From the NCBI GenBank assembly GCA_944383705.1, contig CALWQR010000004.1, positions 1-59,706 on the forward strand: 59,706 nt of DNA, written 5' to 3'. Source of the DNA: an uncultured Clostridia bacterium. GTDB lineage: Bacteria > Bacillota > Clostridia > Oscillospirales > CAG-272. Positions 52,327 through 59,706 of the stretch are shown one piece after another. The notes under the pieces are model-generated. The model did not search any database and was not told the DNA's origin. It saw only the letters and a program-made list of their open reading frames with translations. The translations under genes and the position numbers were made by a program. How positions within the stretch are numbered: position 1 is the stretch's first letter; each line of letters opens with the position of its first letter.

Positions 52327-54348
52327 ATGAAACGCTTTTTTGCACTGCTTGTCGCACTGATGCTTTTGATGGGGACCGTTCCCACGGCTTTTGCGGCCGA
52401 TGCCGCGGCCGAGGATGCGGATCTTGCTTCGCATCTGGTTGTTCATTACGATTTTGAGGGGGAAAGCGTTGCCGAGGCGCTCACCGACAAGGCAACCGGG
52501 GGCAGCGCGCAGGACGATCTGCACGTGTATACTCCGGACAACAAAAATACCGATCCGTCCGGGCAGGCCGTAGAGGCCACCGCGGTGGATTCCTCGGCTT
52601 TTACAGAGAGCTTTGATGTAGACCCTGTGCAGGGCACGGTCAGCAATCTGCAGGCCGGCGCCACCCTGCAGGCGATCAGCTCGGAGGATGTCCGCAGTCT
52701 CTATTCCCGGGACGCCGATGACAATGTCGGCGCCGCCACATGGTTTATCCGCTTCCGTCTGGATGACGTGAGTCAGGCCGAGGCCCGGCTGGTGGATATG
52801 CGCGTGAACAACAGCGGCGGCCGGATGTTTTCCATCCTGGTCAACCAGGAGGGGGCGCTGCTGACCAACGCCGCCCGCACTGCCAGTAAAAACAACAACT
52901 ATGTCTATACCACCGATACCGCCGGCCGGGTGGAAAACGGCGTCTATGTCAATTTTGCGCTGGTCATGGAGACCGGCGTTGGTCTGAACGGTACATCCGG
53001 CTATGAAACGGATATCAAGTACACGCCCTACGTGTCCTATGGCACACCGACTTCGGCGTCCGACTGGATTCCGCTGCAGGGGACCGAGTATGTCTCGTTC
53101 CGCACTGACCGGCTGGCCGATGCGCCGCTCTCGCTCTTTGACCGCTATGACGGGGCGGGCAGCAACAATGCCACCCTGACGCTGGACGATGTGCGCCTGT
53201 ACAACAAGGGGTTGACCGCCGCGGAGCTGCAGGAAATGTTTGCCGCCGGCAGCTTTGTTGACGACGGCCGGCCAACCGAGCCGGATAACGACAAAATGGC
53301 AACCGGCGCTTACACGGTGGGGGAGGAATTTGTCTCGTTTTATCCCACGGATGACGCAACCTATGTGCGTCTGGATTCCGGCAACGCCTGGGCCTTAGCC
53401 GATGCCGAGGGCGCCATGGGCGGCAAGGCCATTACCTGCTCTGCCGAAGCATCGGACGCAGAGGGAGACGGCTTTACCTGGGTGTTTGTTGTCCCGCAGG
53501 ACGGTGACTACACCGTGTGGGGGCGCGTCTGTTATCCCACACAAACCGCCAATTCGCTCTTTTACTCGGTGGACGGAGGGGAATCTCAAATCTGGGACTT
53601 CCCGGATGAAGCCGATGCCGCGGCGGATTGCTATGGCAGCTGGCAGTATTTTTATCTGACCGAACGCAAAAGCGGCACCTATGACGACCCTGCGCAGTAT
53701 GGCCCGTGGACCATTGAGAACGGCGAATGGAGGCATTCGCCAATGGTGCTGCACCTGACGGCGGGTGAGCACAGCATTCATTTCACCGGCCGGGAGGCAG
53801 GCATGTCGATTGACGAGCTGGTGCTGACCAGCTACGAGGTCTCGGAGTATGACCCGAACCGGTTTGAGGGCAATTCCTGTCTGCTGGAATCCTGCCAGTT
53901 CTGCGGTACGGCATGGCAGCATTACTATTCGGACGGTTACGCACAGAACGGCGTGACGGCGCAGTCCTACTTCACCAACGTTCTGCATCCGGATGCCGCC
54001 GTTTGGCAGATTCCGCCCGTCACCCCCGTTCCGGAGGACCCGGACGAGCCGGAAGACCCCGATACGCCGACCGACACCGACGAGCCGGATACCCCCGGAG
54101 ATTCGGATGAACCCGACGAACCGGACGATTCGGACGAACCGGATGAGCCCGACGATCCCCAGGCCGCGACATCGGGGGGTGATGCCGGGACAGAGACTCC
54201 CGGTGCCGGGGATGAGAGCACCGGCGATTCTTCCTCCGCAGACGGGGACGGCTGTGCCTCGGTTTTTGGTTCCGGCAGCATGATGGCGGCCCTGGTTGTT
54301 GCCGGACTGGCTGCATCCGGTATCTTCAGACGGAAGGAGAACAGCTGA
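52327..54348 (+). CDS. Secreted LamG-like + CBM-like protein with acidic linker and C-terminal membrane anchor
   Basis: Signal peptide (AFA); LVVHYDFEG...LDDVRLYNKGLT; CBM6/35-like GDYTVWGRV...LTAGEHSI; PDEPD repeats; GC-TM-RRK tail. Confidence 0.8.
   Translation: MKRFFALLVALMLLMGTVPTAFAADAAAEDADLASHLVVHYDFEGESVAEALTDKATGGSAQDDLHVYTPDNKNTDPSGQAVEATAVDSSAFTESFDVDPVQGTVSNLQAGATLQAISSEDVRSLYSRDADDNVGAATWFIRFRLDDVSQAEARLVDMRVNNSGGRMFSILVNQEGALLTNAARTASKNNNYVYTTDTAGRVENGVYVNFALVMETGVGLNGTSGYETDIKYTPYVSYGTPTSASDWIPLQGTEYVSFRTDRLADAPLSLFDRYDGAGSNNATLTLDDVRLYNKGLTAAELQEMFAAGSFVDDGRPTEPDNDKMATGAYTVGEEFVSFYPTDDATYVRLDSGNAWALADAEGAMGGKAITCSAEASDAEGDGFTWVFVVPQDGDYTVWGRVCYPTQTANSLFYSVDGGESQIWDFPDEADAAADCYGSWQYFYLTERKSGTYDDPAQYGPWTIENGEWRHSPMVLHLTAGEHSIHFTGREAGMSIDELVLTSYEVSEYDPNRFEGNSCLLESCQFCGTAWQHYYSDGYAQNGVTAQSYFTNVLHPDAAVWQIPPVTPVPEDPDEPEDPDTPTDTDEPDTPGDSDEPDEPDDSDEPDEPDDPQAATSGGDAGTETPGAGDESTGDSSSADGDGCASVFGSGSMMAALVVAGLAASGIFRRKENS
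54013..54160 (+). repeat. Low-complexity Pro/Asp/Glu coding repeat (linker)
   Basis: PEDPDEPEDPDTPTDTDEPDTPGDSDEPDEPDDSDEPDEPDDP. Confidence 0.8.
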
Positions 54349-54349
54349 G

Positions 54350-55660
54350 ATGAAAAAAACAGCGGTTGCGTTGACGCTCGTCATGCTGATTCAGCTGACC
54401 GTGCTTGCCCTGCTGCCGGTCAGCGCGGCGGACGCCGGACAAGACCTGGCCGGACATTTGGTGGTGCATTATGATTTTGAGGGAGACACCGTAGAGGAGG
54501 CGCTCTCGGATAAGGCAACAGGCGGCCGTGTGTCGGATGCCCTGCATGCGTATACACCCGACAATAAAAATACCGACCCGACCGGGCAGACCGTTTCCCC
54601 CACTCTGATAGATTCCGATGCCTTCCGCGCAAGCTTTGATGTGGATACCGAGCGGGGGACCGTCCGCAATCTGCAGGCCGGCGCCGCGCTGGAAGCGGTC
54701 AGCTCGGAGGATATCCGCAGCCTGTATTCGCGGGATGCGGATAACAATGTCGGCGCTGCCACGTGGTTCATCCGCTTCCGTCTGGACGATGTGAGTCAGG
54801 GCGGCGAGGCCCGGCTGGTGGATATGCGCGTAAACAACAAGAGCGGCTGCATGTTTTCCGTTCTGGTCAGTACGGACGGGAAGCTGTGCACAAACGCTGC
54901 GAAAACCGCGAGCAGTCGGGAGACATATTTCTACACAACCGATGAAAAGGGTTTGGTGCAGAACGGGGAGTACGTCAACTTTATGCTGGTGATGGAAACC
55001 GGAACCGGCACCTCCGGGTATACTACGGATATGAAGTACACCCCCTATGTCTCCTACGGAATTCCGACCTGCGCCGAGGATTGGATTCCGCTGCAGGGAA
55101 CCGACTACGTATCGTTCCGTATCGACCGGTTGTCCACCGCCCCGCTTTCCCTGCTTGACCGGTACGACGGGGCCGGCAGCAACAATGTCACCCTGACACT
55201 GGACGATGTGCGGCTGTACAACAAGGGACTGACCGTAGAGGAGATGTCCTCCGTATTCACGCAGGGGAGCTTTGATACGGTTCATCTGGTGGGCTCTCAA
55301 ACCAAACGGAACGAACAGGACGGTTTTTATGACCTGCGGTTTGTGGCGGTTGCGGATGCGCTGGACGCCTCCCGCGTCGGATTTGAGGTGACCGCTGCGT
55401 ACAGACAGGACGGGGAGACGGTTGAGGCGGAGCCCTGCTCCTTCGATACCGACGTGGTGTATTCGTCCATTCGCGCCGGAGGCGAGACAATCATGGCCTC
55501 TGACCTGGGGGGAACGTATGTGATGGCACTGGTTATCGGGCACATCCCATCTCATTATCAGGAAGTCAGCTTTGAGGTGCGGCCATACCTGCTCTATGGG
55601 GAGACCCGGATCTATGGGCAGACGCAAACCGTGAGATATCCGGCAGAGGAATTGGCATAA
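54350..55660 (+). CDS. Secreted LamG-like paralog with an unnamed beta-rich C-terminal domain
   Basis: Signal peptide (VSA); N-domain closely similar to the upstream gene; C-domain YDLRFVA..VGFEV..VYSSI..LGGTYVMAL..FEVRPY. Confidence 0.8.
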   Translation: MKKTAVALTLVMLIQLTVLALLPVSAADAGQDLAGHLVVHYDFEGDTVEEALSDKATGGRVSDALHAYTPDNKNTDPTGQTVSPTLIDSDAFRASFDVDTERGTVRNLQAGAALEAVSSEDIRSLYSRDADNNVGAATWFIRFRLDDVSQGGEARLVDMRVNNKSGCMFSVLVSTDGKLCTNAAKTASSRETYFYTTDEKGLVQNGEYVNFMLVMETGTGTSGYTTDMKYTPYVSYGIPTCAEDWIPLQGTDYVSFRIDRLSTAPLSLLDRYDGAGSNNVTLTLDDVRLYNKGLTVEEMSSVFTQGSFDTVHLVGSQTKRNEQDGFYDLRFVAVADALDASRVGFEVTAAYRQDGETVEAEPCSFDTDVVYSSIRAGGETIMASDLGGTYVMALVIGHIPSHYQEVSFEVRPYLLYGETRIYGQTQTVRYPAEELA

Positions 55661-55786
55661 CCGCATAGTAAAACCGGATTTTGTGTGGGGGCAGGGCCGT
55701 CTTCGGTCTGCCTTGCCCCTTCGGACGTTGTATCCGCCCGGCCTTCCCGGGCCTGACAACCCGATATTGACAGAAGGGAGATTGCA

Positions 55787-55927
55787 ATGAGAAAAACCTA
55801 TATTCACCCGATGCTCGGAGTGGTATCCGGCGGTCCCGAGGACTGTATTGCCACATCCACCCTGACCTTTCATCCGACAGGGGAGGGGGACCCCATCAGC
55901 GTGGATTTTGACAGCATGTTTCACTGA
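55787..55927 (+). CDS. 46-aa small peptide with YxxP...EDCIATS leader-like motif
   Basis: Hand-translated MRKTYIHPMLGVVSGGPEDCIATSTLTFHPTGEGDPISVDFDSMFH; GAAGGGAG RBS 6 nt upstream; below the ORF-track size cutoff. Confidence 0.75.
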   Translation: MRKTYIHPMLGVVSGGPEDCIATSTLTFHPTGEGDPISVDFDSMFH

Positions 55928-56224: not shown

Positions 56225-56767
56225 ATGACCGAAAAGGAACTTCTTCAGCACGCCAAGGGCTACATTGACAACCTTGCAAATGGCATCAATCCACTCACGG
56301 GCGAGCCGGTCGCCGAGACCGACATCGTCAACAACGTGCGGATTTCGCGCTGCCTGTTCTATGTCTCCGGAATCCTGGACAAGGTTCTCAGCGGCAACAA
56401 GCAGATTGTCCCGCGCGATCGGCGCCTCCGCTTTTCGGTTTCACCGGAAAAACTGGAGGCGTTTCCGTATGCATCCGCTCCGATTTACGTGTCCGAAATC
56501 GCCAACCGGCTGTCCGCGCTGGCCGATGACGGCTCCGGGAAGATTTCTGCATACCGGATTACCAAATGGCTGTTGGCAAACGGATTTTTTGAGGAGCAGA
56601 CCGACAGCTCCGGCAAGCCCCGGCGGGTGGTGACCGAGGCCGGCAAGGAGATCGGTCTGTACCAGGTGGAACGGGAAAGCGCGCACGGCAAATTTCTTGC
56701 CACCTTATATCCAACCGAGGCCCAGCGCTTTATTGTGGATAACCTGGAGGCCATTCTGGCAGAGTGA
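56225..56767 (+). CDS. Hypothetical DNA-binding protein (antirepressor KilAC-like C-half)
   Basis: LANGINPLTG N-domain; ITKWLLANGFF..TEAGKEIGL..EAQRFI. Confidence 0.7.
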   Translation: MTEKELLQHAKGYIDNLANGINPLTGEPVAETDIVNNVRISRCLFYVSGILDKVLSGNKQIVPRDRRLRFSVSPEKLEAFPYASAPIYVSEIANRLSALADDGSGKISAYRITKWLLANGFFEEQTDSSGKPRRVVTEAGKEIGLYQVERESAHGKFLATLYPTEAQRFIVDNLEAILAE

Positions 56768-57616: not shown

Positions 57617-59677
57617 ATGAAAAAAAGACTTGCGCGGGAGATTGCTCCCGTTCTTTCCACCCTGCTGCTGATGGCCGCCGGCGGTCTGCTGCCCCGGGAG
57701 GGAATACGGGATTGGCGGCTGGTGCTCCCGTTGGCTCTCTGTGCCGTTTTGCCGCTGCTGCTGGAGCTCTGCGGGTTTGTTGCCTTCGAGCTGGTTAACC
57801 GCCGCCTGCGGCAGGCCGACATTGCCAAAATGCAGCGCTACCTGGTGGGGCACCGGGATGCCGCCGCCGAGACCGCCCGGGCCAAGCTGGCCAGCCTGCG
57901 GCGCCTCCGGATGCTGACCGGCGCATATACCGCGCTGCTCTGGTTGCTGGCTGCCGGGACGGCGCTGCTTGCCGGGCTGACCTTTCAGGAAGCGTTTTCA
58001 CTGCTCACGCTCCCGGTCTGCTTCTGGGCTTATCTGTTGTTTTACGCGGTATACAGCCGCTTCCGCCGCGAGCGGACGGACGACCCGACGGGGGACGGCG
58101 TGGTCCCCCTGGACGAGGCCGATTACCCCGCCCTGTACGCGGCGGCCCGCCGGGCTGCTGACAGCCTGGAATACCGGGGCCGCATCGGCATTCTGCTGAC
58201 GCCGGGCTGCAATGCCTCGGTCCTGCGGGAGCCGCAGGGCTGCCGCCTGCTGCTGGGAGCCATGCTGCTGCAAATCATGTCGGAGGAGGAGCTGCACTGC
58301 ATTCTGCTGCATGAGCTGGCGCATATCGCGGCCGCCCGGCCGGAGACGCTGCGCGAGGCGCGCTGCAATGCCCGGATCCATGAATGGGAATCCGATTCCA
58401 CGTGGCAGCTGCACGCCGTGCGGGGCTTATTCCTGCCGCTGGATTTTGCCTATACCTTCCACTACGGCCTCTACGAATACGCCTCCTCGGTCATCAACGA
58501 GCTGGCGGCCGACCGCGCCATGGCCGACTTCGGCTCTCCCGCCGCGGCGGTATCCGGTCTGCTGCGCCTCTTTTACACCGATCGGTACGAGTGGGAGGAC
58601 GGCTTGGAGGACAGAACCCCGCTGCTGGAGCCCGAAGAGCCTGCGCCGGATTATATCGCCCGGAATCTGGACGCCTTCCGGCAGGCCGTCGAACGGCGGC
58701 ACAAGGATTGGGACGCGATGGTGGGTATAGAAATTCTGGCCAACAACGCCTCCCATCCCACCCTGCGGATGCGCATGGAGGCGCTGGGGGTCAGCGAGGC
58801 GCGGACCATCCCGCAAAACGATTCGGCCGCCTGGACTGCCGAGATGCAGAAGGCATTGGCGGCCGCCGAGCAGGCCGTGCTGAAGGTCCGGAAAGAGACC
58901 TACGCAAAGGACCGCGAAGAGAATTATCTGACCCCGCTGCGGGAGGTAACCGAATGGGAGGAAAAGGGACGCCCGGTCACCTCTGGATATCCCGATATTG
59001 TGGCCGCGCTGGACCGGCTGTGCAGATACTCCGAGGCCGAGGAACTGTGCGAACGTGCCATGGCCGAGCTGCCCGATACCTCCTCGCTGTATGCCCGCTA
59101 CTTCAAGGGCTGCTGTATGCTGTACCGTTACGACGCGCGGGGGATGGAGCTCATTTACCACGCCATCGAAAAAAACTCCAACCTGCTGGAAAACGGGCTC
59201 AGCGTCATCGGTACCTTTTGCTGCTACACCGGGCGGGAGCAGAAACTGCAGGACTACCGCCGGCGCGCCGTGCAGCTCTCGCAAAAGGACAAGGACAGCA
59301 CCAGTCAGGCCGGGTTCCTGACCCAGCACGACCGCCTGAGCAGCGAAACTCTGCCGGAGGGAATGCTGGAGAATATCCTGGCCTACATCGGCAGTGTGGC
59401 GGACGGGAAAATCGCGCGCGTGTACCTGGTGCGCAAAACCGTGAGCGATTCCTTTTTCACCAGCGTCTTCCTGATTCGCTTTGCCGGAGGAACCGACCAA
59501 CAGCAGCGTGAGATCCTTCACAAAATTTTTCTCTACCTGGACGGCTACCCCGTAGAGTGGCAGTTCTCACTGTTCGATTACGCCGATTATGCCTTCATCC
59601 ACCCCGAAAAAATCAACGGCAGCCTCGTCTGGAGCAATACGCCGAAGGAGAAGACCTTGGAGGGCCCCGCCTCTTAA
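57617..59677 (+). CDS. M48-family membrane zinc metalloprotease with a helical C-terminal extension
   Basis: N-terminal TMs, CNA, HELAH, ELAADR, SHPTLRMRM. Confidence 0.85.
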   Translation: MKKRLAREIAPVLSTLLLMAAGGLLPREGIRDWRLVLPLALCAVLPLLLELCGFVAFELVNRRLRQADIAKMQRYLVGHRDAAAETARAKLASLRRLRMLTGAYTALLWLLAAGTALLAGLTFQEAFSLLTLPVCFWAYLLFYAVYSRFRRERTDDPTGDGVVPLDEADYPALYAAARRAADSLEYRGRIGILLTPGCNASVLREPQGCRLLLGAMLLQIMSEEELHCILLHELAHIAAARPETLREARCNARIHEWESDSTWQLHAVRGLFLPLDFAYTFHYGLYEYASSVINELAADRAMADFGSPAAAVSGLLRLFYTDRYEWEDGLEDRTPLLEPEEPAPDYIARNLDAFRQAVERRHKDWDAMVGIEILANNASHPTLRMRMEALGVSEARTIPQNDSAAWTAEMQKALAAAEQAVLKVRKETYAKDREENYLTPLREVTEWEEKGRPVTSGYPDIVAALDRLCRYSEAEELCERAMAELPDTSSLYARYFKGCCMLYRYDARGMELIYHAIEKNSNLLENGLSVIGTFCCYTGREQKLQDYRRRAVQLSQKDKDSTSQAGFLTQHDRLSSETLPEGMLENILAYIGSVADGKIARVYLVRKTVSDSFFTSVFLIRFAGGTDQQQREILHKIFLYLDGYPVEWQFSLFDYADYAFIHPEKINGSLVWSNTPKEKTLEGPAS

Positions 59678-59706
59678 ATTTCACACCGAAGGAGAAGACC
59701 TTGGAG
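59642..59706 (+). repeat. Direct repeat (21 bp or longer, period 44) cut by the window end
   Basis: ccgaaggagaagaccttggag at 59642-59662 and 59686-59706; related inverted copy at 55-76. Confidence 0.75.

Follow-up and report, generated by a model that had tools for sequence, protein, structure and literature searches.

Linear polyphosphorylated peptides (LPPs) were described from the lppA-K-B-S-D-N locus of Paenibacillus alginolyticus, in which the core residue Ser3 is polyphosphorylated by LppK, and the SipW-like LppS cleaves after T-1 in a step that needs LppB, the protein by which the YxxP leader is bound (Popov et al., Nat Commun 2026, PMC13381572). In that publication, the biological role of LPPs is given as unknown and precursors were sought only within 5 kb of the cluster; its main text deals with Bacilli, and the string 'Clostridi' occurs in it 0 times. 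Here, we analyzed a 59,706-nucleotide (nt) stretch of DNA, hereafter the window, which is the whole contig C4 (CALWQR010000004.1) of an uncultured Clostridia bacterium (GCA_944383705.1; 2.18 Mb in 174 contigs, 62.5% GC, estimated to be 84% complete). Behind a gene for a secreted protein, the window carries an open reading frame (ORF) of 46 amino acids (aa), which we consider likely to be a genuine gene for the ribosomal precursor peptide of an LPP-like pathway acting in trans.

In prochlorosin-type systems, one modifying enzyme set acts on tens of scattered precursors with a conserved leader and a variable core. The present system resembles them in having a single enzyme set and many scattered precursor genes, whereas the chemistry and the enzymes differ and each precursor here goes with one specific gene next to it. 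The paeninodin-type class of phosphorylated lasso peptides, as portrayed in PMC13381572 and PMC7533575, also combines a [Y/W]xxPx[L/V/I] leader and a discrete B1-type recognition element with an HprK-like tailoring kinase; unlike in those systems, no B2 cysteine peptidase was found in this genome, and the peptide tail is unsuited to a macrolactam ring.

The peptide family and its genomic setting

The relevant features of the window are as follows.

54350..55660, + strand: secreted-protein gene, 436 aa from ATG (ORF list)
55277..55657, + strand: unnamed 127-aa C-terminal beta-sandwich domain of that protein (no Pfam or NCBIfam match; predicted structure)
55687..55719 (approximate), + strand: GC-rich hairpin within the 126-nt spacer, with no T-run 3' of the stem (fold)
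55775..55780, + strand: Shine-Dalgarno-like AGGGAG, 6 nt 5' of the ATG (read from the sequence)
55787..55927, + strand: precursor-like peptide gene, 46-aa ATG ORF, stop included (ORF list and paralogous family)
55787..55858, + strand: putative leader part, residues 1-24, Y5-x-x-P8-x-L10 ... D19-C-I-A-T-S24, the conserved half of the family (alignment; core boundary inferred)
55859..55924, + strand: variable acidic tail, residues 25-46, with the C-terminal aromatic/acidic motif ...VDFDSMFH (tail composition of the family)
52327..54348, + strand: tandem paralogue of the secreted protein, 673 aa (ORF list, alignment)

These features bore out an initial annotation of the window, which had described the 46-aa ORF with its good ribosome-binding site, the hairpin upstream of it and an unnamed beta-rich domain at the end of the secreted protein. 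The ORF starts 126 nt downstream of the secreted-protein gene, and the hairpin forms an 11-pair stem in the minimum-energy fold of 55661-55790. The folding stability of the entire spacer was not exceptional (z -1.51, with 13 of 200 shuffles equally stable). A role of the hairpin as a terminator was unsupported, given that a terminator scan of the + strand gave no such site and that a T-run is absent.

When the 46-aa peptide was used alone as a query in its own genome, it retrieved only itself at E < 0.3, plus one weak match at E 0.3, and it matched no Pfam or NCBIfam model. Its family was found only through a motif scan followed by a profile; profile matches on contig C128, where no peptide-like ORF was present, and a chance motif match at position 28781 of C1 were dropped before the family was built. 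In this genome the family comprises 21 paralogues of 38-50 aa on 19 contigs, with profile E-values of 1e-13 to 1e-21, and a 22nd, weak match (C23:14798-14896, E 0.002) was left outside this set. The paralogue consensus reads M-K-(K)-x-Y-x-x-P-x-L ... D-[VL]-[IL]-x-x-S, with Y5, P8, D19 and S24 near-invariant both among the paralogues (A1) and in the wider family (A3). The initial annotation had read the N-terminal half as a leader of the type bound by RiPP recognition elements (RREs; RiPPs being peptides that the ribosome makes and that are modified after translation), and, in line with this, [YFW]xxPx[LIVMFA] was present in 17 of the 21 paralogues and YxxP in 18. The family's own motif, [YFW]xxP-x10-[DE]-h-h-x-x-S, was found in 17/21 paralogues and in 48/50 wider members. 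The tails had a median length of 20 aa, were composed of approximately 20% D+E and 3% K+R, and carried an aromatic residue among their last eight positions in 15/20 (A1) and 43/50 (A3) cases.

A search of 1.84 billion representative proteins with the profile of the 21 paralogues returned 885 representative clusters at E<=1e-3. Among the best 150 of these, 139 were 33-58 aa long and aligned from residue 1, one was 81 aa long, and 10 were long repetitive proteins that we took as false matches; none of ten family clusters looked up bore a name. The exact 46-mer is already present in public protein collections, NCBI among the sources. Near-identical DNA occurred in sequencing runs from several studies labelled chicken gut, gut, manure or bird metagenomes, and the strain variants of the peptide differed mainly at positions 16 and 25, with the conserved residues nearly always kept (one of ten variants has N at position 5). 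In addition, the codon-usage score was gene-like (positive) in 20/21 paralogues, and purine-rich sites preceded the starts. Taken together, the paralogues, the 885 representatives, the strain variants and the codon usage indicate, on the strength of sequence comparison, that the 46-aa ORF is a real gene.

With regard to position, 18 of the 21 peptide genes lie at most 48 nt behind a gene on the same strand. The three exceptions are the copy in the window (126 nt), the copy on C24, which is located 25 nt upstream of a secreted-protein gene, and the copy on C40, whose upstream gene, encoding a protein with the beta-sandwich domain, had been omitted by the gene caller and was recovered by the domain search. 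As this simple caller skipped at least one gene, counts of upstream genes are floors. The upstream products were mostly 400-900 aa long with signal-peptide-like N-termini; in a domain scan of ten of them, CBM9 alone passed the cut-off, LTD and GLUG remained below theirs, and seven were without any domain. Other clostridial genera contributed 11 loci (GC 35-53%), and in seven of them a long same-strand frame (at least 273 aa, cut by the locus edge) ended at most 28 nt before the peptide. The spacing within the genome and the loci from other genera thus indicate that the pairing of a secreted protein followed by a peptide is conserved well beyond this genome. Together with the family profile, these loci also agreed with a statement of the initial annotation, according to which MKKxYxxP...EDxIxTS peptides recur beside secreted proteins in gut Clostridia.

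By eye, several peptide-preceding secreted proteins without the beta-sandwich share a second, helix-rich C-terminal module (L003:2798-5122, L017:5020-6978, L011:4312-6984, L019:5662-6984, L015:2677-4998), which recurs 5' of peptides in other clostridial genera (L024, L030, L031, L033, L034).

A kinase-RRE-peptidase trio in trans and its co-occurrence with the peptides

The initial annotation had stated that no RRE is encoded near the peptide and had proposed processing in trans by RRE and peptidase machinery, and both statements fitted the remainder of the genome. Its only PqqD-family (RRE) gene, a discrete one that matched PF05402 at 68 bits, is located on contig C9 in the gene order kinase, RRE, peptidase, and all 21 peptide copies are on contigs other than C9 in this fragmented, 174-contig assembly. 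The nearest NCBIfam models of the RRE were lasso PqqD chaperones, and its PDB sequence matches included TbiB1 (E 4.9e-5) and LppB (9x8z_B, E 8.2e-4). Upstream of it lies a gene for a 246-aa P-loop protein whose predicted structure (predicted local distance difference test, pLDDT, 91.4) had HprK/P chains as its top Foldseek matches (1kkl, E 4.9e-6, target-normalised TM-score approximately 0.5); the P-loop GxGKST was invariant in 12 homologues, and a weak match to TIGR04352 (E 0.0012) was also recorded. The downstream gene encodes a 155-aa peptidase, in which S25, H65 and D80 were invariant in 16 sequences and which matched TIGR02228 (archaeal-type signal peptidase I) at E 3.5e-5 and 23.7 bits, below the 51.85-bit cut-off. 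It was typed as SipW-like through this family model and the triad. PDB sequence searches with the kinase-like protein and with the peptidase gave no match. The gene 3' of the peptidase, followed by the contig end, encodes a 169-aa predicted membrane protein without a family match (L023:3177-3683, C9), which was not present in the congener examined.

The distribution of the trio across genomes tracked that of the peptides. Peptide matches were found in 11 of 18 congeners, with 1 to 24 in each, and both the PqqD RRE and the peptidase were present in 10 of these 11, compared with none of the seven peptide-negative congeners, in which neither was found (Fisher p = 1.6e-4 with this genome included, a value that is too strong, since related genomes are not independent). 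An even sample of 199 further genomes of the class was searched with the broader profile A3, and a peptidase homologue was detected in 32/33 peptide-positive and in 40/166 peptide-negative genomes. Furthermore, at seven loci in six genomes of this sample, peptide and peptidase share a strand, with the peptide 1.2-2.3 kb upstream. Three of these loci were read, and they comprised a secreted protein, the peptide, in two cases an SLH-like protein or a lipoprotein, and then kinase, RRE and peptidase (the RRE frame being present in one of the three ORF lists); one of the three continues with an ABC-type protein. Loci that hold both peptide and trio have the standard layout of a RiPP cluster, which indicates that the peptide family is the substrate of the trio, and processing in trans by the RRE and the peptidase is well supported by the co-occurrence.

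Peptide copy number varied widely among peptidase-bearing genomes, with 13, 8 and 7 matches in three other genera of the class sample (G186, G007 and G058) and 24, 19 and 16 in congeners (G213, G216 and G210).

On this basis, we propose the following course of events. The YxxPxL knob of the leader would bind the single discrete PqqD-type RRE encoded on C9, and the HprK-fold kinase encoded beside it may then phosphorylate a hydroxyl residue near the leader-core junction, the near-invariant Ser24 being the most plausible acceptor. The leader would be removed by the neighbouring SipW-type Ser/His/Asp peptidase, which would release an acidic peptide of approximately 20-25 residues whose C-terminus is aromatic/acidic. 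A single locus for kinase, RRE and peptidase would in this manner serve about 21 dispersed precursor genes, which are as a rule co-oriented with and tightly behind a secreted-protein gene, often one whose product ends in the same beta-sandwich domain. This tight and co-oriented pairing suggests that the peptide product, once exported, probably works together with the neighbouring secreted protein outside the cell.

Likeness to and divergence from LPPs

The trio itself is already known as the core of the LPP family, published in May 2026 (PMC13381572), and the proposal of the initial annotation of a candidate new system was therefore not upheld. As in LPP loci, the K-B-S order is kept by an HprK-like kinase, a PqqD RRE of the discrete type and a leader peptidase of the SipW/archaeal Ser/His/Asp type, and all three of these features of LPP membership were found here. 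The precursors are likewise short and consist of a YxxP leader, which is conserved, and a C-terminal part that varies. At 11 positions after the Pro stands an acidic residue, as does E-2 in LppA, and a conserved Ser follows just past it, although at P+16 here and at P+15 in LppA. Similarly, no cyclase turned up in the present genome, where no dedicated search for a lasso cyclase was made.

Other features set the two apart. Unlike in the LPP locus, the nucleoside triphosphate (NTP)-transferase (LppN) and the MsbA-like pump (LppD) are not beside the trio in this genus; the precursors are dispersed, at about 21 per genome, and located outside the cluster instead of in it or a few kb from it; each stands behind a secreted-protein gene and not in a capsule locus; and the lineage is Clostridia, in contrast to the Bacilli of the published work. 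Precursor-like genes are moreover multiplied, with 21 copies here and up to 24 in a congener, peptides follow secreted-protein genes across Clostridia of GC 35 to 62%, and within the genus neither peptides nor beta-sandwich domain occur in genomes without the trio.

Several observations weigh against the assignment of the 46-aa ORF to an LPP-like pathway. The published leader motif, YxxPxVLxHQxIxFETxxS or, in short, Px9Fx[T/A], was not present; the short form was found in 0/21 paralogues and 0/50 wider members. A search of PDB chains with the family profile gave none at E<=10, 9x8z included, whose leader chain may be too short to be part of the set, and the RRE is no nearer to LppB than to a lasso B1. 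No NTP-transferase or exporter adjoins the trio, either here or in two congeners. Two PF14907 genes are present in the genome (C53 and C39), both unlinked to the trio, and within the genus PF14907 occurred in only 7/12 genomes with peptides, counting the present one, but in 1/7 without them as well. One peptide-positive congener (81% complete) and one peptide-positive genome of the class sample (94% complete) were without the peptidase, and 40 peptidase-positive genomes of the class sample gave no peptide with the profiles used. Finally, the RNA evidence consisted of one 151-nt metatranscriptome contig over 55808-55934, from a library that may contain DNA; a second RNA-labelled run, probably DNA, covered 55763-55913, and, with four RNA-labelled runs examined, lack of cover over other parts proves nothing.

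In two other families of the order, PF14907 was located 0.3-3 kb from the RRE and the peptidase. As the published leader motif was not found, we filed the system as a divergent clostridial variant, LPP-like in its working. Literature searches returned no description of dispersed precursors paired with secreted proteins, although the LPP supplements may list clostridial clusters. As far as these searches reach, neither the dispersal and multiplication of the precursors nor the systematic way in which they are paired with secreted proteins has been published. Such an arrangement would mean that cluster-centred RiPP mining overlooks most precursors of this class, and it offers a concrete lead on LPP function, namely that the peptide works with the neighbouring secreted protein.

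The beta-sandwich domain and alternative explanations

The secreted protein of the window consists of a signal-peptide-like N-terminus (approximately 54350-54436), a weak concanavalin/LamG-like region (Laminin_G_3, E 0.036, under the cut-off) and the C-terminal domain. An AlphaFold2 model of the domain alone was a complete all-beta sandwich (pLDDT 92.5). Its 127 residues matched no model in Pfam or NCBIfam, a Foldseek search of the PDB gave nothing at E<=1e-3 (best E 1.8e-3, to generic immunoglobulin- or ApaG-like sandwiches), and a word-based homology search returned four proteins, all without names. In the ESM Atlas, unnamed Bacillota clusters were retrieved at 0.92 and fn3 at 0.81-0.84, the latter being a lead only. 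The genome encodes the domain in 15 predicted proteins, or 16 copies including that on C40, always at the extreme C-terminus.

One alternative explanation, which is compatible with processing by the trio, is that the beta-sandwich of the upstream protein is bound by the peptide, or by the acidic-aromatic core left after processing, which would act as an adaptor, for example as a link to the envelope via the phosphorylated end. In its favour, a peptide gene follows 12 of the 16 domain copies at a distance of 1-126 nt, and for one further copy it lies 23 nt upstream. Among the 18 congeners, the domain was found in nine, every one of them peptide-positive (9/11 versus 0/7), and 29 of the 82 congener domain matches had a peptide match at most 250 nt downstream, with 11/15 and 11/13 in two genomes. 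Over 11 pairs, a Mantel comparison also related domain similarity to the similarity of the adjacent peptide cores (r 0.37, p 0.014), whereas leaders were uncorrelated (r -0.12, p 0.75); such a signal can, however, stem from the two genes having been duplicated together.

The link was less consistent in other respects. Nine of the 21 peptides follow proteins without the beta-sandwich domain. Three of the 16 domain copies had no peptide gene (the downstream DNA of those on C104 and C151 was read and held no peptide frame), which leaves three to four domain proteins without a peptide. Four congeners had no paired domain match, and in three of these the domain is embedded in longer frames that have no peptide in their vicinity (0/9, 0/5 and 0/6). 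The link between domain and peptide that the initial annotation had drawn thus held by position at many loci, but not for the peptides behind domain-less proteins. In addition, a peptide exporter was not identified in this genome, where no search aimed at exporters was made; the 169-aa membrane protein encoded behind the peptidase would be a first candidate.

The initial annotation had also suggested that the peptide core serves as a tether or partner strand for the domain. The analogy behind the partner strand is donor-strand complementation in chaperone-usher pili, where a short peptide segment completes a beta-sandwich. Unlike there, the domain is here predicted to be complete without the peptide, so that no donor strand is needed, and neither a chaperone nor an usher takes part. 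A prediction of the peptide-domain complex was graded as weak support, with a score of 0.53 against 0.02 for the best of three controls, an agreement between runs in at least 29% of contacts, and a partner pLDDT of at least 42. In the benchmark of this procedure, the mark was reached by 58/80 solved complexes and 2/110 mismatched pairs, with scores of at most 0.60 for seven of those 80 and for both mismatches. By the procedure's own account, a weak pass of this kind is oftener wrong than right unless the guess was likely beforehand. Overall, we regard the adaptor explanation as rather unlikely, and a tethering or surface-display step would be conjecture.

A broader form of this idea is that LPP-type peptides are dedicated partners of secreted proteins, the processed phosphopeptide recognising the C-terminal module of the upstream protein and anchoring, targeting or regulating it at the cell surface, with one trio for more than 20 pairs per genome. 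We put this forward as a rather doubtful proposal. If true, a RiPP pathway would here have been put to use in displaying proteins, and not in making an antibiotic or a signal.

According to a second alternative, the ORF encodes a small protein that stays unmodified, or serves the operon as a device for translation or regulation, such as a coupled micro-ORF, in either case unrelated to the RRE locus. Tight spacing toward the flanking genes on either side, observed at many loci, would suit such a device. It would not account for conservation at the amino-acid level (the RRE-type N-terminal motif and the tail composition) across genomes of GC 35-62%, and it leaves both the co-occurrence with the trio and the adjacency to it in six genomes unexplained, which makes this explanation very improbable.

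A lasso-peptide precursor, the type named in the initial annotation, would share the YxxPxL leader motif, which is common with lasso leaders, and the best PDB match of the RRE is a lasso B1 protein. Lasso rings require an acidic residue at core position 7-9. In the peptide, the first acidic residue after Ser24 comes at position 10, outside that range, and the neighbour of the RRE is a serine peptidase. The lasso explanation was rejected because no B2 peptidase was found (Transglut_core3, PF13471, no match at E<=1 in the 84% complete genome), and we assign it hardly any probability. That the ORF, short as it is and almost without matches in single-sequence searches, arose by chance is scarcely credible in view of the profile E-values, the 885 representatives, the conservation of position and of ribosome-binding sites, and the retention of the invariant residues in strain variants. 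A precursor of an LPP-like pathway acting in trans is hence the explanation that we retain.

The tandem paralogues of the window also deserve description. The N-terminal 276 aa of the 436-aa protein are 73.6% identical to the 52327-54348 product, on which Laminin_G_3 scored E 6.9e-4, likewise under the cut-off. The two diverge at their C-terminal ends, with a membrane-tail type in the 52327-54348 product and the beta-sandwich plus peptide in that of 54350-55660. In place of the beta-sandwich, the former has a G-C-A-S motif, after which a hydrophobic stretch leads into a basic tail, and no peptide gene stands behind it. A tail of this kind, composed of an acidic Pro-rich linker, G-C-[AQ]-S, a run of about 20 hydrophobic residues and a terminus rich in Arg/Lys, is common to several secreted proteins (window 54240-54345, and products downstream of peptides on C24, L004:7161-9869, on C7, L009:5780-6991, and on C40, L016:7136-8833), and it resembles a sorting signal of the C-terminal kind in which a Cys is conserved.

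The 180-aa ORF at 56225-56764, 3' of the peptide, matched no Pfam or NCBIfam model. At its end (59640-59706), the window carries a dispersed repeat of approximately 40-65 nt, often in adjacent copies, which is also present on C9, C55, C43, C5 and many other contigs. Genome-wide, 178 blastn pieces of this repeat were detected, 49 of them at most 200 nt from a contig end, and the repeat therefore probably breaks the assembly.

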